From Chthoniobacterales bacterium (GTDB taxonomy: Bacteria; Verrucomicrobiota; Verrucomicrobiia; Chthoniobacterales; JAFAMB01): 36,231 bases of DNA. Under the pieces are notes generated by a model. That model searched no databases. It saw nothing but the letters and a program-made list of their open reading frames with translations, and was not told where the DNA came from. Shown one piece after another: positions 25,123 to 33,055 of the stretch; position 1 is the first letter of the stretch, and every line of letters starts with the position of its first letter. Both the position numbers and the translations under genes were made by a program. The stretch covers positions 1 to 36,231 of the forward strand of contig DASXBV010000064.1 in NCBI GenBank assembly GCA_036491515.1. Reading direction: 5' to 3'.

Positions 25123-26211
25123 TCAAGCGTTGGGTTCGCGCATAAGCCGCGCCATTTCACGGAAGAGTTCAAGATCCTGCACGAAATCCTCAGGCCCCGT
25201 TTTCGGCACTCCCTTCCCGACAACGTTGTCATACAAAGCGTTCCATTCAGCAATGAAGGGGTCGCCCCAGCTGGGATGAGAGTCGATGCGTTCAACCCCT
25301 CCGCGACCGTTGCTTTCAGTGACGAACAGCCGAATCGGTAAATTGCGCACGTACGGAGTATCGTACTGGATTCGCACGATCTTTTGAGCGCCGTACACCT
25401 CGAGGTGACCGTCAAATCGCGGAATTGCATCGACGCCAGTTTCGAATTGGCAAACGTACGATCCGTAGTCGAATACTGCTGACAGATAGCCTCCGTCGGA
25501 CCGTTCTGCTGCAAAGAGCACTCTTTTAGGCATACCGAGCAATTCGCGCATCGCCGAAATATCATGGCTGCTCAATCCGAGCATAAGCCGGTACGCCCGC
25601 TTCAAAGAAGGTTTCGCGTTCGCTCCCAGAGCCTCCTCCACCAGGGCATCATCGCGGTTCGCAGTTTCCTTTTTGGTCGACTCCAGGAATGCCAGATCGC
25701 GGATCACGCAGGATGTCGCGTCAATGATCAACGAGTTCGCCCCGATGATGTCGCGCACCCGGGCATATTTAATTTCGCCGAGATCGCGAACTAACGCGCA
25801 TCCATCCAGAAAAGCCGGCGCATACCGGCGCATGTAGCCAACCTGCACAACAACCCCACTCTGCTTTTGTGCCGCGGCAATCTCGTGCGCCTCACGCAAG
25901 GTAACGCACATCGGTTTTTCGACGAGCACATGCTTCCCTGCAGCGAGCGCCGCCAGCGTGACCTCCGCATGATACGCGTTCGGATTTGCGACCAGCACAA
26001 CATCCACTTCTGTGCGTGCGATAAGTGCTCGGTAGTCAGTCTCGAGGATGCCGACGTTCCAGAGCTTTCCTAACTGTTCCAGAACAGCCGGGCTCACGTC
26101 GCACAACGTGGTGATCTCGTACCGCTCCGGCAATTGATAGAGAGCCGGCACATGGAGTATTTGCGTCACTTCGCCACAGCCCACGATCCCAATTCTCAAT
26201 CGTCGATTCAT
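25123..26211 (-). CDS. Gfo/Idh/MocA family oxidoreductase
   Basis: 362 aa counted from the ATG at 26211 (MNRRLRIGIVGCGEVTQILHVPAL, an N-terminal Rossmann fold). The ATG at 26265 is an alternative start. The 125 extra residues of the track ORF read through pseudogene remnants. Confidence 0.8.
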   Translation of the reverse strand: MNRRLRIGIVGCGEVTQILHVPALYQLPERYEITTLCDVSPAVLEQLGKLWNVGILETDYRALIARTEVDVVLVANPNAYHAEVTLAALAAGKHVLVEKPMCVTLREAHEIAAAQKQSGVVVQVGYMRRYAPAFLDGCALVRDLGEIKYARVRDIIGANSLIIDATSCVIRDLAFLESTKKETANRDDALVEEALGANAKPSLKRAYRLMLGLSSHDISAMRELLGMPKRVLFAAERSDGGYLSAVFDYGSYVCQFETGVDAIPRFDGHLEVYGAQKIVRIQYDTPYVRNLPIRLFVTESNGRGGVERIDSHPSWGDPFIAEWNALYDNVVGKGVPKTGPEDFVQDLELFREMARLMREPNA

Positions 26212-26276
26212 CGATGTTTCACCGGACGATCGCCCAGTGGGTTTATCTGTTAGTTTTGGTGACATAAGTTGTTTTC

Positions 26277-26441
26277 CTAACCTTTGACCGCCCCCGCCGT
26301 GGCTCCGGAGATCATGTACTTTTGGATAAACAGGAACAGAATGAGCGTCGGCACCATCGCCAGGGTCGCTGCAGCCATCAGACTTCCCCAATCGGTCGAA
26401 TATTGCTGCATGAACGATTGGATGCCGACAGGCATCGTCAT
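26277..26441 (-). pseudogene. Remnant: last 54 codons of a MalG-type carbohydrate ABC permease
   Basis: The minus-strand translation is MTMPVGIQSFMQQYSTDWGSLMAAATLAMVPTLILFLFIQKYMISGATAGAVKG*. This parallels the C-terminus of the intact permease at 1038-1871 (LPIGLQTFMSS...VSGLTAGAVKS). An in-frame TGA lies immediately upstream, so about 80 percent of the gene is missing. Confidence 0.8.
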
Positions 26442-26689
26442 TCAATCTTCGTCCCGCAGAAAAACGCTCGCAGTTCGACGATAGCGCGATGTCCGGGACG
26501 CTCAAAGCATAAAGCGGATCGACGGAAGTTACCGTTTGCCTTCCAGAGGACGTCATTTCGGCGTTGAAACTCGCGGGGTCCATCACCGCATCTAAGGATT
26601 CGCTTTTGCAGGTCCTCTTCAGAAAGAGCGAACATCGCCTGATATTCAGTCAACGATCGGCCCCAAGGAACGACATTCTCCAGTTTCAT
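26442..26689 (-). pseudogene. Remnant: frameshifted and 3'-truncated class I SAM-dependent methyltransferase
   Basis: MKLENVVPWGRSLTEYQAMFALSEEDLQKRILRCGDGP continues as ASFNAEMTSSGRQTVTSVDPLYALS only after a 1-nt shift in the C-run (GGGG on the plus strand, 26575-26578). The PWGR...MFAL...GCGDGPASFNAE pattern is recalled from a conserved methyltransferase family. Homology is lost by about 26480. Confidence 0.7.
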
Positions 26690-26771
26690 GCACGAGTGCT
26701 CATCAGCCTGAAACCCGGGAAGTCCTCGCCCACCAGGGCCTTTCTATGCTACACATCTTGTACCCGCAATC

Positions 26772-27440
26772 ATGGAGAGTCCCCGAGAAAAACTGCTGAA
26801 GAGATTCGCCCGCAACCCTCGCTTAACCCCTTCACAAATCAGTGGAACGGCCGCCGTCCAATTTGCTCTGAATGAGTTACTCGCCGAGGGCGCCATCCGA
26901 AAATTGGACGCGTTCTACCTGGCCGAACATGAACCCACCATTTATACCGAAAAGGCACGGATAGCGAAACTACTGGAAGCGAAACCGAAACTCTTTCGCG
27001 CTTCGTTTTTGCTGCCAAAAATCCGCGCTCTAAAGCCTCTGGCGCGCACAGCACTTGCCGAGCTGGTCGATGAGCGCATCGTCCTGGAACTGCCGATGCA
27101 CGGCAAGGGGTCTACACTGCTTTATATACATCGCAGCCATCTGGCCCGCGCCGAGCCGGCAAATGAGGCAATAGGAAAAGGACCGCTCGAGGAACGAATC
27201 CTCGCGGCATACCGTGACGGCTCAACTGCGCGCCAAAGGCGATCGATCCCCATTTCCGAATTGATCCAACGTTCCGGCCTTTCTGCCGGTGAAGTCCGCT
27301 CCTGGATCGTAGAGACCGGCATACCATCCCGCAAAGTGCAACTGGACCAGGGCGATTGGGCATCCGCCAGTGAAGATGAGCGTGCTGCGGCGATTGAACA
27401 GGGCGGCCGGAAACGACTCTACATCGCGATTGAGCCATGA
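26772..27440 (+). CDS. Cassette gene A: small protein with two to three winged-helix-like modules (hypothetical)
   Basis: 222 aa. wHTH-like segments include LTPSQISGTAAVQFALNELLAEGAIRKL, ARTALAELVDERIVLEL and IPISELIQRSGLSAGEVRSWIVETGIPSRKV. The stop overlaps the gene B start (ATGA at 27437-27440). Confidence 0.6.
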   Translation: MESPREKLLKRFARNPRLTPSQISGTAAVQFALNELLAEGAIRKLDAFYLAEHEPTIYTEKARIAKLLEAKPKLFRASFLLPKIRALKPLARTALAELVDERIVLELPMHGKGSTLLYIHRSHLARAEPANEAIGKGPLEERILAAYRDGSTARQRRSIPISELIQRSGLSAGEVRSWIVETGIPSRKVQLDQGDWASASEDERAAAIEQGGRKRLYIAIEP

Positions 27441-29470
27441 AGTTCGAACTAGCCGGGTTGTCGATCAACCCATTCGACAAAGATGTCGTTCACAAACCGC
27501 GCGAATGCCCAAGCTCGGTCGCTACACTCAACGAAGACATCCTTTCCCGGCTTATCGCCGCATTCGGTTTGGTAGATGCGAACCGGACTCTGGTCGGAAA
27601 CAAGGCGGAACTCATCCTATCTATCGCCCCCGGCTACGGAAAGAGCCATCTCGTCGGACGCTTGTTTAAAGCGCTGGATCGCAAGGCAACCCAGATTTTT
27701 CTCACACCGTTCCAGACAGTGTCATTGTGCTGGCAGTCTATTCTCCTTCACCTCGTTAATGAACTCGACTATCCCGACTCCAGTGACGAAACCAAGTGGG
27801 CTTTTGACGAACCAAGGCAGCTCGATGCGCTCGCAGAAGGAGTTCTGAGAAACCTCGTCGCCAACGCTATTGATGAGGGACTTGTCAAGATTGTGCAAGG
27901 GGGGTTGCAATCAGAACAATTGCGCCAAGCCTCAGAGATTTCGATCGGCAAGGGCTCGGATCCCAGGAGCACCTGGCTCCGTGACCATTTCATTGACGAA
28001 CTTTTGCCGCTCTGCCAACAGCAACTTTTTCCGTTACGATTGACCTCGACCGGGTGGTTGAAAGTGCTGTTCCATTATCTCACCTCTTCGCCAGGGTCCG
28101 ATATCCGGCAAGGTTGTCTGGCTTGGCTCAGGTATGAAACCCTCGATGACTCGGTGCTTCAATCCCTCGGGATGGGACCGGGCGAAAACCCGAGAAGCGA
28201 GCCGGTGGACGTCGTGAATAACGCTTGCTGGCTGCGTATCCATGATTTCTGCAAGCTGGCGCGCTATTTCCGTCCCTTTCTTTTTTGTTTTGACCAGACT
28301 GAAGACTACAAGACGAATCTGGAGCTGCTACAGCAATTCGGGCGAGTCGTCGTTCGCTTGGTGAACGAAGTGCCAAACCACCTTACCGTCGTGACTGCAA
28401 ACCAGGTGATTTGGGATGAGAAAATTCTCCCAAATATCGATGACGCGCATCGCGATCGTTTTTCGGTCTCAAAACAGCTCCGCGGTCTGGACCGTCGGGA
28501 AGCCGAGGAACTGATCAGATTACGGCTAGCCCCTTTCGCTCCTGCCGAAGAACTCCTTGACCGATTTGCAGACCAGAGATGGCTCGATGCCCTGTTCTCC
28601 GAACGCAAGACGCTGCCCGCCCGTGAGTTTATGCAGCAATGCAGAGACCGTTGGGCAGGCGCAAAAACTGCAACTCCAATCCCTCCGCTAGATCACATTT
28701 TTGAGGAATACCTGTCCGAGTTTCGCGTTAATTTACGCTGGCGACATTTTGATCCCGATGTGTTCCGATGGCTCGTAAAGGGTCCGCTCGCTACGGATCC
28801 GGCGATCGTCTGCTCGGAAAACAAAAAAGAAACCCCTTTCGCCGAACTCCAATGGAGCGTGGCCGGGCGGGCGGAGATTCTGTTCGGATTTGTTCGCGAG
28901 TTGCATTTTACCCAATGGAGAAAAATCGCCGACGTTGCAGACGCGTGGCGCGCGAAACATTCCGGCAAGGTTGCTAAGATCATCTATTTTCGGTCCGAAG
29001 AACTGGATCCGGTTCCAAAACCCTCATGGACGAAGACCGGACCGGCGATCCGCGCGTCGCTCGGATCCGGGCTGGTCGTGCTGACTAAAGAAGAAAGCGC
29101 AGAATTGAATGCCGCGCGAGATCTCTATCTCGAAGCGGTTTCTGGAAATGTGTCCGGGTATTCCGGAGAGGATGTCCTCCGGTTTCTACAAAAACGACTG
29201 GCGCCCTGGCGCGAACGAATTTTGCAAATTCCGTCGTCATCGCATCTCCACCAGCCGGAAAATCGTGCTACAGGCAAGCCTCCAACCAAATTGTTATTGG
29301 AAAAGTTACGAATCCTTGTGCAACAAGAGAAATTCCTGAGCCTCACCGATGCTCTCGAAAAGCTCGGCGCAGGATGCAGCGAGGACCTTGTACTCGAGGC
29401 GTGCGAAAAAATACCGCAAATCCAAAAGATCGCTCATCCGAATATGGTCGTGCTCATATGGCAAGGATAA
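27437..29470 (+). CDS. Cassette gene B: large P-loop NTPase (AAA+/ORC-like or BrxC-like) with widely separated Walker A and B motifs
   Basis: 677 aa. Walker A is SIAPGYGKSHL (nt 27626-27646, K69). The candidate Walker B is FLFCFDQTED (D286, nt 28292), followed by a sensor-like HLTVVTANQ. The C-terminal segment LLEKLRILVQQEKFLSLTDALEKLG looks like a wHTH. Confidence 0.65.
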   Translation: MKFELAGLSINPFDKDVVHKPRECPSSVATLNEDILSRLIAAFGLVDANRTLVGNKAELILSIAPGYGKSHLVGRLFKALDRKATQIFLTPFQTVSLCWQSILLHLVNELDYPDSSDETKWAFDEPRQLDALAEGVLRNLVANAIDEGLVKIVQGGLQSEQLRQASEISIGKGSDPRSTWLRDHFIDELLPLCQQQLFPLRLTSTGWLKVLFHYLTSSPGSDIRQGCLAWLRYETLDDSVLQSLGMGPGENPRSEPVDVVNNACWLRIHDFCKLARYFRPFLFCFDQTEDYKTNLELLQQFGRVVVRLVNEVPNHLTVVTANQVIWDEKILPNIDDAHRDRFSVSKQLRGLDRREAEELIRLRLAPFAPAEELLDRFADQRWLDALFSERKTLPAREFMQQCRDRWAGAKTATPIPPLDHIFEEYLSEFRVNLRWRHFDPDVFRWLVKGPLATDPAIVCSENKKETPFAELQWSVAGRAEILFGFVRELHFTQWRKIADVADAWRAKHSGKVAKIIYFRSEELDPVPKPSWTKTGPAIRASLGSGLVVLTKEESAELNAARDLYLEAVSGNVSGYSGEDVLRFLQKRLAPWRERILQIPSSSHLHQPENRATGKPPTKLLLEKLRILVQQEKFLSLTDALEKLGAGCSEDLVLEACEKIPQIQKIAHPNMVVLIWQG

Positions 29471-31293
29471 CTGTCACGCAACTGAAACACGCCTCTCTCA
29501 ACAAGGAATGGCGTGACGCCTGGATTCGCGACCTATCCACCCCTACGCCAATCGCTCGCGCACCCAAAAAAAGTGTGCCCGTAAACAGCACGTTATTTCA
29601 TCGCCTGGTCGAACAATTCTCGGACTGGCTTACCGCGGAACCGAACCTCAAGATGGCAGCGAAATTATCCCGCTATGATAATCTCTGGGACGCGTTCTGG
29701 AATACGTTTGCGAAGAAAGAACTGCTCGCGCTTTTGCAGCAGCAGGGACCTGAATCCGCGGATCGCTTGACGAAATCCCTGAAAAACTGGTGCCAACAGT
29801 TACTGACGAAACGCGATGCTGCCGCTTCCTTCAAGAATTGGCGAAGTCTTATCCTGACCTCTGAATACCAGTTCGACGATATTCCCGTCTCAACCGCTCG
29901 GGGTATTGTCCATGTTGCCGGACGCCCTGACTGCGTTATTCTGGAAAACAGCGGCCCTGTTGTCGTTGACTACAAGCTCTCGCGCGGCGCAAACCTCAAA
30001 ACGGATCTCCTTCAAGCCGTCATCTACGCCGCGCTCTTGCAGCGCGCCCGCCCAAGTCTGCTCATTTCCGCGCGGCTCGAATACTACGAGCCGCATCTGC
30101 ACGTCATCGCCCAAAATCCCGACCAAATCAAAAGGCTATTCGACGAACTGGTCGCGCCAGTACTCGAGGCACTCGCTGCGCATTTCTCCGAAAATCCTCC
30201 CGAACCGGCCGGGGCAATTCAATCTCATACACAACAACTGCCGTGCCCTAACTTCGGAACTGAGATCGTTACTGCTTACCACGCCTATGGTGTAACCGTT
30301 CAAGTGGTGGATCGATTGGAAGCTCCTCAGCTTGTGCGTTACCGGCTGCAAATGGGCGAGGGAGTGAAGTTTAACCAAATCGAGCAACACTCGACCAATC
30401 TGAGAATTGCATTGGCGTTGCCCTCTGAACCGATGATCTCAGCCGGCCCGGGCTTTGTCTTCTTTGACGTCGCGAAACCGCAGCCAGACACAGTCCAATG
30501 GTCAGAGATCACCAATTTTCCCGCGTTTCGGCAGCATCCTAGCGTCACCGCTTTTCCGGTGGGTATAGGCGTCGATAACCAACCGATTATTGCTGACCTC
30601 TCCGACCCAAATATGGCTCACGCGCTCGTGGCTGGCACAAGTGGAAGCGGAAAGAGCGAGTTTTTGAAAACCGTCGTTGCCACGCTTGCTGCCCGAAATT
30701 CACCGGCCCAGCTGAAATTTTCTCTGATTGATCCCAAGCGCCTCACGCTGGGAATGATCCGCGACAACCACTACCTCGCGGGCCCTGTGATTTTCTCGCT
30801 CAAACAAGCTTTGATCTGCCTCGCCGATGCAGCCGAAGAAATGGATCGGCGTTACGACGCCCTACTTCAGGAAGGGTTCACCAAACTGAGTGATCGATTT
30901 GTATCTGGTAAGAAAGACATCCCGTTCCGTGTCCTCGTTTTTGACGAGTTTGCGGATCTAGTGCATTCCGGCAAGGAAGGAAAAAAGGAGTTCGAACGTC
31001 TCGTGGTGCGCATTGCCGGTAAGGGCCGAGCGGCGGGCATCCATCTTGTTGTCGCGACTCAACGTCCTGATCGCGAGACCGTGAGCGGCTTGTTGAAAGC
31101 CAATCTTCCCCTGAAGGTTTGCTTCAGAGTTACCAACTCAGTGAATTCAGCCATTGTCCTCGATCAACCTGGCGCCGAAAGACTCCTTGGGCGCGGCGAC
31201 TTCCTTTGCGACCGAGGCAAAGGCCTTGAACGCGGCCAGGCTTCACTCATCTCCCAGGACCAATTCCTGCAAGCCTTAACGCGCCGTTCGTGA
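29458..31293 (+). CDS. Cassette gene C: RecB/Cas4-like PD-(D/E)xK nuclease fused to a soluble FtsK/SpoIIIE-family ATPase
   Basis: 611 aa counted from the ATG at 29458, which overlaps the end of gene B by 13 nt. Nuclease motifs: GRPD (nt 29920-29931), VVDYK (DYK at 29968-29976) and QAVIY. FtsK core: VQVVDRLEAPQLVRYRLQMGEGVKFNQIEQHSTNLRIALAL, Walker A GTSGSGKS (30634-30657), Walker B VLVFDEFAD (DE at 30943-30948) and HLVVATQRP. No TM segments and no gamma domain. Confidence 0.8.
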   Translation: MARITVTQLKHASLNKEWRDAWIRDLSTPTPIARAPKKSVPVNSTLFHRLVEQFSDWLTAEPNLKMAAKLSRYDNLWDAFWNTFAKKELLALLQQQGPESADRLTKSLKNWCQQLLTKRDAAASFKNWRSLILTSEYQFDDIPVSTARGIVHVAGRPDCVILENSGPVVVDYKLSRGANLKTDLLQAVIYAALLQRARPSLLISARLEYYEPHLHVIAQNPDQIKRLFDELVAPVLEALAAHFSENPPEPAGAIQSHTQQLPCPNFGTEIVTAYHAYGVTVQVVDRLEAPQLVRYRLQMGEGVKFNQIEQHSTNLRIALALPSEPMISAGPGFVFFDVAKPQPDTVQWSEITNFPAFRQHPSVTAFPVGIGVDNQPIIADLSDPNMAHALVAGTSGSGKSEFLKTVVATLAARNSPAQLKFSLIDPKRLTLGMIRDNHYLAGPVIFSLKQALICLADAAEEMDRRYDALLQEGFTKLSDRFVSGKKDIPFRVLVFDEFADLVHSGKEGKKEFERLVVRIAGKGRAAGIHLVVATQRPDRETVSGLLKANLPLKVCFRVTNSVNSAIVLDQPGAERLLGRGDFLCDRGKGLERGQASLISQDQFLQALTRRS

Positions 31294-31888: not shown

Positions 31889-32335
31889 TCAACCGCAGGA
31901 AAGTTTGAGCGCTTGATAAACCGGGTTGCTTCCCAGCTCTGGATGCTTGGCAAGCAACTCCGCGTCCAGCCGCCGAGCCAAGTTCCTTACTTGTTCCCTG
32001 AATACCGGGAACGGTACAATGACTTCTCCCGGTGCGTAACTCCCGGAGATTACCACCTCCAGGCCTTGGCGTTCAAAATTAAGGGTCGCCTCCGACTCGG
32101 TAAACTCAAAGGTTTCGTTTCCCTCTGCTACGGCCAAAGCCTCCGCAATCTCTCGCAAAGCCAATGCAAAATCGATCAAAGGAATCCAACCCCAAATTGC
32201 GCTCAGGTCTGTCTGGTCTGCTCGGAGAATGATGTCCCCGGGCGCAACATAGTAGCGGAGATCCGCCTCTGCCACAGTCGACAAATCCATGGTATCCTCG
32301 TCCCATTCTTCGGAAAGCCGGTAGTCGAGGTGCAT
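31889..32335 (-). CDS. Strongly acidic hypothetical protein (candidate immunity partner)
   Basis: 148 aa, D/E-rich (SEEWDEDTMDLSTVAEADL, ETFEFTESEATLNFE), with no signal peptide. It begins 34 nt downstream of the secreted toxin-like ORF on the same strand. Confidence 0.55.
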   Translation of the reverse strand: MHLDYRLSEEWDEDTMDLSTVAEADLRYYVAPGDIILRADQTDLSAIWGWIPLIDFALALREIAEALAVAEGNETFEFTESEATLNFERQGLEVVISGSYAPGEVIVPFPVFREQVRNLARRLDAELLAKHPELGSNPVYQALKLSCG

Positions 32336-32369: not shown

Positions 32370-32783
32370 TCAAAACGGAAATGCGGTGATGAGTTGATTG
32401 CGAGGGCTCACCACGATCCGGAGCCTGCTGGCCGGTTCGCCATTGATCTTTACACCGATCGGCCGACTGAAATCGTACTCGTAGATTTCGCCAGGTCGCC
32501 CGTTCGTGTTCGGCCGGGCGCGCCCGTTTGCAACGGCTTCATTAATGAGTTCCCTAAGTGAGTCCTCCGTAATCCCTTGGGAGAACTTTCCCGCACCCTG
32601 GGCCGGACTATTCGGCCAATGCCTTTCCTCGATGTGCCGAAGCGCCCGCCCGGTGATGACAACTTGCCGTGCCGCTTCATTTACGAAGCCCATCCCGTCC
32701 TGTGCTTCAACAATACGATCGCCGAAGACAACCATGACCACTCCAACCCACACACATAAGATCGGAATCCCGGCGCGTTTCAT
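32370..32783 (-). CDS. Small secreted or membrane-anchored protein with an HxxxRH motif (candidate toxin/nuclease-like)
   Basis: 137 aa counted from the ATG at 32783. MKRAGIPILCVWVGVVMVVFG is signal- or anchor-like. The roughly 110-aa domain carries ALRHIEERHW. The alternative ATG at 32810 lies inside the inverted repeat. Confidence 0.55.
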   Translation of the reverse strand: MKRAGIPILCVWVGVVMVVFGDRIVEAQDGMGFVNEAARQVVITGRALRHIEERHWPNSPAQGAGKFSQGITEDSLRELINEAVANGRARPNTNGRPGEIYEYDFSRPIGVKINGEPASRLRIVVSPRNQLITAFPF

Positions 32784-32787
32784 GCTG

Positions 32788-33055
32788 GTGTCCTGTCCCC
32801 GAAATAACATGTATTTTGCCGGAGGTCAGTTGGCTGTTTTTCAAGGCGGTCCGAGCCGGACTGGCGGTAACGAAGCGCCCATACAACTGGCCCCGCCCAG
32901 AGGGTTGCGATGAAAATGGGCCGGCGGCTGTCCGGCGGCCGCCTGGCGGCCGCCGGATCGGTCACGTATCGATTCAGATATGCTCCGCTCCTCGCGCCTT
33001 GCCGGCGGCCCATTTTGATCGCAACAAAACACATGCTATTTCGGGGACAGGACAC
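32788..33055. repeat. Nested inverted-repeat element between rpe and the toxin-like gene
   Basis: Outer IR: 32788-32812 (gtgtcctgtccccgaaataacatgt) versus 33031-33055, 24/25 complementary. Inner IR: 32904-32927 versus 33002-33025, 22/24. A perfect 12+1+12 palindrome, ccggcggccgcc-t-ggcggccgccgg, lies at 32932-32956. Confidence 0.8.

Follow-up and report, generated by a model that had tools for sequence, protein, structure and literature searches.

What does a DNA pump of the FtsK type do when it is fused to a nuclease and encoded in one operon with a AAA+ ATPase and a small protein resembling winged helix-turn-helix (wHTH) factors? The question is raised by a stretch of 36,231 nucleotides from a Chthoniobacterales bacterium of the Verrucomicrobiota (GenBank assembly GCA_036491515.1, contig DASXBV010000064.1, positions 1 to 36,231), hereafter called the window, in which three genes on the forward strand, here named A, B and C, form a compact cassette between 26772 and 31293. 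A preliminary description of this cassette took it for a candidate undescribed DNA-targeting defence or conflict system: sensing or loading of DNA would fall to A and B, and C would be the translocase-nuclease effector.

The word "undescribed" proved wrong, because the architecture matches, gene for gene, one that has already been predicted computationally. Rakesh, Aravind and Krishnan (NAR 2024, PMC10853773) tracked the FtsK/HerA domain of DndH and described "HerA/FtsK capture" systems. In the passages of that paper drawn on here, one branch is coupled to Orc/CDC6: it combines an Orc/CDC6 AAA+ protein, whose C-terminal wHTH is preceded by an inactive restriction endonuclease (REase) domain, with an active REase, a HerA/FtsK domain, which in one set comes with an FtsK-alpha domain captured from cellular FtsK, and, in "a subset" of operons, a fast-evolving protein that contains 2-4 wHTHs (PMC10853773). 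The same passages propose that the wHTH and Orc/CDC6 proteins place the apparatus on invader DNA, which the pump intercepts and feeds to the nuclease, and term such operons "mobile gene neighbourhoods" (PMC10853773). A 2026 paper from the same group restates the prediction and cites no experiment (PMC12839542). The functional part of the preliminary description coincides with this proposal, as far as those passages set it out, and is the best-supported reading of the locus. Overall, we consider it probable, though well short of certain, that the cassette is a predicted Orc/CDC6-coupled HerA/FtsK capture system directed against invading DNA.

Three overlapping genes and their domains

Gene A (26772..27440, 222 aa), gene B (27437..29470, 677 aa) and gene C (29458..31293, 611 aa) all lie on the plus strand and overlap at both junctions, as had been reported. 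The stop of A and the start of B share the letters ATGA at 27437-27440, and the stop codon of B (TAA, 29468-29470) lies beyond the ATG of C at 29458, so that these two genes overlap by 13 nt. An alternative upstream ATG at 29374 would give C a longer open reading frame (ORF), but the homologues all begin MARITV, and the start is thus placed at 29458. Both junctions recur in loci L081, L082 and L164, with A/B overlaps of 4 nt and B/C overlaps of 13-19 nt. Since these overlaps are found in unrelated genomes, translational coupling is a conserved property of the operon rather than a chance feature of one copy.

Gene C carries the clearest domain assignments. Its N-terminal part is a PD-(D/E)xK nuclease of the RecB/Cas4 family (aa 45-241, 29590..30180; Pfam PDDEXK_1, 6.2e-11), followed by an FtsK alpha domain (aa 268-323, 30259..30426; Pfam FtsK_alpha, 1.7e-7) and an FtsK/SpoIIIE beta, RecA-like motor (aa ~361-600, 30538..31257; Pfam FtsK_SpoIIIE, 2.9e-32 over aa 361-537), with both FtsK matches above the Pfam gathering score. 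The motifs first noticed in the sequence are all present, and they are invariant across 17 homologues with identity as low as 43%: in the nuclease, E136, G155, D158 (GRPD), D171-Y172-K173 (DYK), Q186 and Y190 (QxxxY); in the ATPase, G393-S400 (Walker A GTSGSGKS), D496-E497 (Walker B) and T534-D538 (TQRPD). The Walker A lysine K399 is encoded at 30652-30654, inside the GKS stretch at 30649-30657. Because the residues of both active sites are invariant, C looks like an active soluble nuclease joined to an active FtsK alpha/beta motor. The nuclease also matches Cas4 models (~5e-6 to 2e-5 in PADLOC and NCBIfam), and there is no Cas4-type cysteine cluster in the window copy. The motor is of the FtsK type: it matches the NCBIfam FtsK model at 7e-47 and, in PADLOC, the FtsK module at the C terminus of SspH at 2e-48, and a profile of the 17 homologues matches the FtsK motor structures of Pseudomonas aeruginosa and Escherichia coli (2IUU and 2IUS) at ~1e-80. 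HerA models match weakly and partially, at 1.4e-9 or worse, as against 1e-32 to 1e-48 for FtsK-type models. The absence of membrane and gamma domains is confirmed as well: C has no transmembrane segment, its N terminus is the soluble nuclease domain, a Pfam scan gives no Ftsk_gamma match, and the protein ends about 10 residues past the motor. In cellular FtsK, the gamma domain is the part that reads KOPS sequences and activates XerD.

Gene B is known mainly through its predicted structure. An AlphaFold model built with 38 homologues as input (pLDDT 87.5, pTM 0.90) has four parts: a AAA+ core, a helical lid region, an alpha/beta domain and, at the C terminus, a winged helix. The core, delimited by the secondary structure of the model and by columns invariant in the 38 homologues, spans aa 33-350 (27533..28486). 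Its Walker A motif GYGKS (aa 66-70, 27632-27646), which includes K69, is invariant, and so are residues CFDQTE (284-289) of its Walker B motif FLFCFDQTE (aa 281-289, 28277-28303). In the model, a helical insert of about 180 residues (aa 98-277, 27728-28267) separates the two motifs, so the "split" P-loop that had been ascribed to B is real. T320 and N322 are assigned to sensor 1, and R341 is a candidate arginine finger, both from the model and the invariant columns within the core. The C-terminal winged helix (aa 618-675, 29288..29461) shows the element order H-E-H-H-E-E.

Sequence comparison places B less precisely. Pfam AAA_16 and AAA_22 stay below threshold, and a sequence-profile search against the PDB found no relative. 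A Foldseek search of the PDB with the model ranked archaeal Cdc6 (1fnn_A, probability 1.00, TM 0.40 on the target) and yeast Orc1 (6wgi_A, 0.99) highest by probability, at E-values of only 1e-3 to 1e-2. The model is consistent with an ORC/Cdc6-like AAA+ ATPase with accessory domains, and B is a candidate for one. The same grade applies to the alpha/beta domain (aa ~440-570, 28754..29146), whose modelled topology, alpha-beta-beta-beta-alpha-beta, makes it a candidate inactive REase (iREase) placed after the AAA+ core and ahead of the C-terminal wHTH. In the alignment of homologues, no PD...(D/E)xK motif is conserved in this domain, and those residues that are conserved are for the most part aromatic or structural (W445, W473, F483, F485, W494, R519, P527 and W531). 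The weak matches returned by BFVD (E 0.055-0.11) are a restriction endonuclease from a phage and a PD-(D/E)XK protein, and hhalign found no similarity between this domain and the nuclease of C (probability 0.2%). A PADLOC REase_II match elsewhere in B (aa 297-356, E 0.007) falls inside the AAA+ core and was set aside as spurious.

Gene A had been described as a small multi-wHTH-like protein, a label that is weakly supported. An alignment of 27 diverse members divides the protein into three winged-helix-like modules (aa ~1-55, ~60-125 and ~135-222), the last of which carries the motif GDW[SA]..E..R.AAIE, conserved in the family. Pfam HTH_24 matches below threshold, and the family profile matches the winged helix of RPA32 (E 8.6e-4), MarR regulators (0.011) and other HTH regulators. 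The top Foldseek matches of the structure model are all wHTH proteins, none of them significant. The family is small: 1.84 billion representative proteins, searched with a profile, yielded 82 matches. Of the three subunits A evolves fastest, with a median identity to 29 distant loci of 30%, as against 37% in B, 39% in the nuclease of C and 52% in its motor (47% for C as a whole). It is presumed to be the DNA-recognition or specificity factor. As a separate observation, the C-terminal module of A (aa 135-222, 27174-27437) also occurs as an internal domain in giant proteins of 900-3700 aa (P0296, P0298, P0299, P0300, P0302, P0316, P0326, P0343 and P0358), most of which have no Pfam annotation at all.

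Conservation and mobility of the cassette

The three genes are conserved neighbours, as the preliminary description had suggested should be checked. B lies directly upstream of C in 12/12 loci found via C homologues, which come from Verrucomicrobiota, Desulfobacterota (the complete Desulfonema limicola genome among them), Granulosicoccaceae and metagenomes. A larger set of 89 related loci comprises 80 metagenome contigs found via B and nine genome loci found via C; a scan of genome contigs with the C alignment was dominated by canonical Bacteroidota FtsK, and only L001-L006 were useful. In 65 of the 69 loci with sufficient upstream sequence, B is preceded by an abutting same-strand ORF of 220-340 aa, and an iterated hidden Markov model search recognised 71 of the 74 abutting upstream ORFs, taken over all loci, as A homologues. 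A nuclease-FtsK gene follows B in 38 of the 51 loci with sufficient downstream sequence. The remaining loci carry a nuclease only (two), an FtsK motor fused to B with no nuclease (one, L006), or A with a B variant, B', only (ten). Given these counts, A and B form the constant core, and C is the usual third gene. Homologues were found in Verrucomicrobiota, Desulfobacterota, Planctomycetota (Kuenenia), Gammaproteobacteria and Nitrospirota (Magnetobacterium).

The variants differ in composition. B' is about 600 aa long, has neither the C-terminal winged helix nor a C partner, and is followed by unrelated genes; the two-gene A + B' loci L094-L100 (e.g. L098:7291-9800) sit in a conserved neighbourhood of their own. 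Fusions of B with an FtsK-alpha domain and motor, in which the PD-(D/E)xK nuclease is missing, are represented by L006:6150-9050 (966 aa), P0181 and P0182, and range from 966 to 1087 aa. In L154, B is followed by a nuclease-only gene. In two close relatives, B is split into two ORFs (L165:5291-7322, 577+98 aa; L167:3645-5670, 437+229 aa), apparent frameshift pseudogenes inside otherwise intact cassettes.

Such variation bears on one alternative, according to which A and B are themselves the functional core, a DNA-sensing AAA+ switch whose effectors are interchangeable or which has none of its own. C would then be optional, and the outcome might be abortive infection, with host and invader DNA both degraded. 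The linkage of A to B is indeed tighter than that of B to C; ten loci hold A and B' only, in two the nuclease comes with no motor, in one a motor is fused to B and the nuclease is missing, and no modification partner is present that would protect self DNA. However, the full trio occurs in all loci found via C, and loss of C could be decay, as B pseudogenes also occur. We regard this alternative as unlikely.

The setting of the cassette in the window is that of ordinary housekeeping genes. On one side lie an rRNA-methyltransferase-like gene, gatC, gatA and a GFO/IDH/MocA oxidoreductase, and on the other OsmC, two small ORFs of no known family, rpe, tadA, queA and a cyclophilin; the GC content of the cassette is unremarkable against these surroundings. 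None of the flank genes beside the cassette was found in any related locus, which argues against a fixed chromosomal position. In relatives with 64-87% protein identity in B and C (44-74% in A), the cassette stands in wholly different neighbourhoods, and DNA homology detected by blastn is confined to 26714-31287 of the window, from about 58 nt before A to the stop of C. Because the contexts differ and the homology is limited to the operon, the operon behaves as a self-contained accessory unit that moves horizontally between unrelated sites.

The left border of this homology defines a short conserved leader (26714..26771, plus strand). Across related loci the blastn edge falls at 26714-26773, and in an alignment of 10 upstream regions conservation is limited to the last ~60 nt before A. 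An invariant TATGCTAnACA sits in the leader about 25 nt ahead of A's ATG, and a GGAAGTCCTCGCCCAG box lies farther upstream. The leader may serve as promoter or operator, and A might bind it; a simple sigma-70 scan gave nothing at 26714-26771, and a search for promoter and terminator signals gave nothing beyond chance. Together, the leader and the three ORFs are a well-delimited transferable unit of 4.6 kb.

A second alternative is that the cassette is a machine of the host for DNA repair or recombination, a complex for end resection or fork processing like HerA-NurA or AddAB, in which a ring translocase feeds a RecB-type nuclease while A and B target damage. The nuclease of C does belong to the RecB/AddB/Cas4 family, the coupling of motor and nuclease follows the logic of HerA-NurA, the neighbours are mostly housekeeping genes, among them RecG and RecJ in L166/L167 and UvrD in L081, and the GC content is that of the surroundings. 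A repair machine would nevertheless be hard to square with a patchy spread across phyla, with close relatives that hold the cassette at unrelated sites where homology stops at the operon borders, with frameshifted copies, with variants that lack the effector, and with the fast evolution of A, which is unusual for a repair factor. This explanation is distinctly unlikely compared with a mobile capture system.

A third alternative is that B is the initiator, A the site-specific binder and C the pump of a mobile element, serving its replication, segregation or transfer as does TraB, the FtsK-type pump of actinomycete conjugative elements, or that the operon itself is a minimal selfish element; Orc/Cdc6-clade ATPases are known to serve transposons such as Tn7 and Mu. 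Although the cassette moves as a unit, in line with the "mobile gene neighbourhoods" of the published passages (PMC10853773), and C has a weak NCBIfam TraB match (9.8e-12, far below the cut-off), this is just as improbable as a repair role: genes for an integrase, a transposase, a relaxase, replication or type IV secretion are absent from the inspected loci and from the top neighbour families, a search for direct, inverted or terminal repeats and target duplications at the cassette gave nothing beyond chance, homology ends at the ORFs, no B homologue was found in 2.9 million viral contigs, C has no membrane anchor, and an invariant, seemingly active nuclease on the pump is hard to reconcile with the transfer of intact DNA.

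The wider neighbourhood gives little sign of a defence island. Among 133 neighbouring ORFs from 22 loci, specific defence matches are few (HEC-05 strong, DRT once, TIR three times, PDC-S03 twice) and most families are metabolic, a count to be read with no background rate beside it; other PADLOC matches are generic (UvrD/GajB, cyclases, kinases), and six Pfam-annotated loci have only HicAB or VapB nearby. No clear enrichment near known defence genes was seen. Some distant cassettes do have conflict-related neighbours: at L083:12987-17496, the cassette is accompanied by a RecB-like DUF2779 protein, a protein with an HD domain and a HicAB pair, and in Desulfonema limicola (L081:4929-6594) a ParB_N-domain protein adjoins a metallophosphatase upstream of it.

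The immediate surroundings in the window had been portrayed as an accessory islet with gene-decay scars and a toxin/immunity-like pair, free of methyltransferase, integrase, relaxase and secretion genes. The last point holds, since no integrase, relaxase, secretion gene or DNA methyltransferase lies near the cassette. The islet is not substantiated, the flanks being ordinary housekeeping genes. The supposed toxin/immunity pair, two adjacent minus-strand ORFs at 31889-32335 (148 aa) and 32370-32810 (146 aa), the second with an N-terminal hydrophobic segment, has no credible Pfam family for either member and is not substantiated. The mention of decay scars does fit. A minus-strand ORF at 26438-26689 (83 aa, VPWGRSLTEYQAMFALSEEDLQKRILRCGDGP...) resembles the N terminus of a class I SAM-dependent methyltransferase, with no Pfam match, and seems to run on out of frame (..DPASFNAEMT..) in the 5' extension of the oxidoreductase ORF 25123-26586. 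To judge from the sequence, the minus strand at about 26400-26700, directly upstream of the cassette, looks like a frameshifted methyltransferase-like remnant.

A proposed capture mechanism and its weak points

If the cassette is a capture system, its parts suggest a simple division of labour. A, with its three winged-helix-like modules, would read some feature in the DNA of a foreign element that is entering the cell or replicating. B would act as an ORC/Cdc6-like AAA+ switch that uses ATP to couple recognition by A to the recruitment or loading of C on DNA, in effect standing in for the KOPS-reading gamma domain that C lacks. C would then form an FtsK-type hexameric ring and pump double-stranded DNA, and its N-terminal RecB/Cas4-type nuclease would cut the pumped DNA, so that the captured molecule is destroyed. 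We infer in what order the events occur, that B is a loader, that foreign DNA is the target and that there is a defence phenotype. The idea of a loader draws on two precedents, the loading of MCM by ORC/Cdc6 and the gamma-directed loading of FtsK at KOPS, and on the existence of B-FtsK fusions.

Several points weigh against this assignment. Since ten of the 51 loci have A and B without any nuclease-FtsK gene, the effector is not strictly required, and A and B as a pair may serve some function independent of it. The Orc/Cdc6 and REase labels of B derive from a structure model and from Foldseek E-values that are not significant, and other AAA+ proteins score about as well as Cdc6 and Orc1. The structure model of A is poor (pLDDT 57.7, with close homologues only as input), and a PADLOC scan of the 27 diverse A-family members found no match to DndG, SspB, BrxA or other families; the kinship with DndG, SspB or FokI that is claimed for such proteins was not seen at the sequence level. 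The neighbour families of the operon include no modification enzyme and nothing else that would obviously tell self from non-self, and the association with defence islands is weak, with no clear enrichment. In addition, literature searches found no experimental study of Orc/CDC6-coupled capture systems.

A bolder version of the mechanism can be formulated, although we think it rather unlikely: in these gamma-less FtsK-nuclease fusions, B could be a dedicated ORC-like loader that chooses the site and direction of loading, guided by A as a hypervariable triple-wHTH reader, and A-B could be an autonomous DNA-surveillance core, present without C in the A + B' loci and wired to different outputs. 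If true, the cassette would provide the first FtsK translocase that depends on a loader, and an immune parallel to the loading of MCM by ORC/Cdc6.

As a discovery this is modest, since both the architecture and the way to read it had been published before; the new details are the constant A-B core and the sharply delimited transferable unit. Nevertheless, if the prediction holds, the cassette would be a compact three-gene immune system in which a pump of the chromosome-segregation type, fused to a nuclease, destroys foreign DNA under the guidance of an ORC-like ATPase and of a DNA reader that diversifies rapidly, with no modification partner. It would show FtsK motors redirected from segregation to immunity, and self told from non-self without methylation. 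The delimited 4.6-kb unit, its clear mutant targets and the A-B constant core make the published prediction directly testable, and the locus, clean and compact as it is, would suit a first experimental test of the capture class.

Comparison with known systems

How does the cassette compare with systems that are already known? Some resemblances are confined to single domains. The preliminary description had likened B to BrxC, and this failed, as PADLOC gives no BrxC match for B; the mad8 model matches the ATPase core of C only (1.2e-22), and with no other BREX or MADS genes in the window, membership in either system is rejected. TraB-type conjugation was likewise considered and rejected. With ORC/Cdc6-MCM, TnsC and MuB, the cassette shares a putative Orc/Cdc6-clade AAA+ protein with a winged helix and a ring motor or nuclease-fold partner. 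It differs from them in that no sequence-level relation is seen, B has the 180-residue insert and an extra alpha/beta domain, and the cassette operon has no transposase or replicative helicase.

Cellular FtsK/SpoIIIE is a closer relative of C, with homologous alpha and beta motor domains (2IUU, as above) and intact ATPase motifs. In contrast to it, C has no membrane domain, linker or gamma domain, bears an N-terminal nuclease and keeps no conserved chromosomal position. With a score of 160 against an NCBIfam cut-off of 1566, C is not a cellular FtsK. The HerA-NurA, SIR2-HerA and DUF4297-HerA pairs also couple a hexameric pump of the FtsK/HerA superfamily to a nuclease or toxic effector, whereas the cassette motor belongs to the FtsK clade, its RecB-type nuclease is fused to it, and an ORC-like ATPase and a wHTH protein are added. 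Membership in these pairs is rejected in view of the weak, partial HerA matches and the absence of a NurA, SIR2 or DUF4297 partner from the window.

DndFGH and SspFGH (DptFGH) resemble the cassette more fully, as three-gene units with an REase-fold nuclease, an FtsK/HerA pump and a multi-wHTH partner, for which A would be the DndG analogue. However, C has 611 aa as against ~1700 for DndH and lacks the SWI2/SNF2-C, TRD and inactive-methylase domains, A and B match none of the F or G subunits, and no phosphorothioation module lies near the cassette. The SspH models align with C over their last ~330 positions only (1413-1736 of 1766), and no SspF/G or DndF/G match was found, so the cassette is not a member of this group.

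The Orc/CDC6-coupled capture systems remain the nearest match. As a named system, the trio is absent from PADLOC v2 and NCBIfam, where, as in Pfam, only the FtsK and Cas4-like modules of C match. The proviso in the preliminary description, that the trio might turn out to be an already named system, is thus largely borne out by the published passages (PMC10853773), with the difference that the class is a prediction that has no gene names and no PADLOC or NCBIfam models, so that likeness to it is judged by the described architecture. One feature differs: the multi-wHTH gene is near-universal here (65/69), as against "a subset" of operons in those passages (PMC10853773). Of the features of the class, the fast-evolving multi-wHTH protein is recognised on weaker evidence, and the FtsK-alpha/FtsK motor, the active REase, as predicted from its motifs, and operonic mobility are clearly found; for the Orc/Cdc6 ATPase and the inactive REase, B offers candidate counterparts. 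With these taken as candidates, in their domain inventory, their gene arrangement, their packaging in one mobile operon and the function proposed for them, the cassette and the Orc/CDC6-coupled capture systems are alike.

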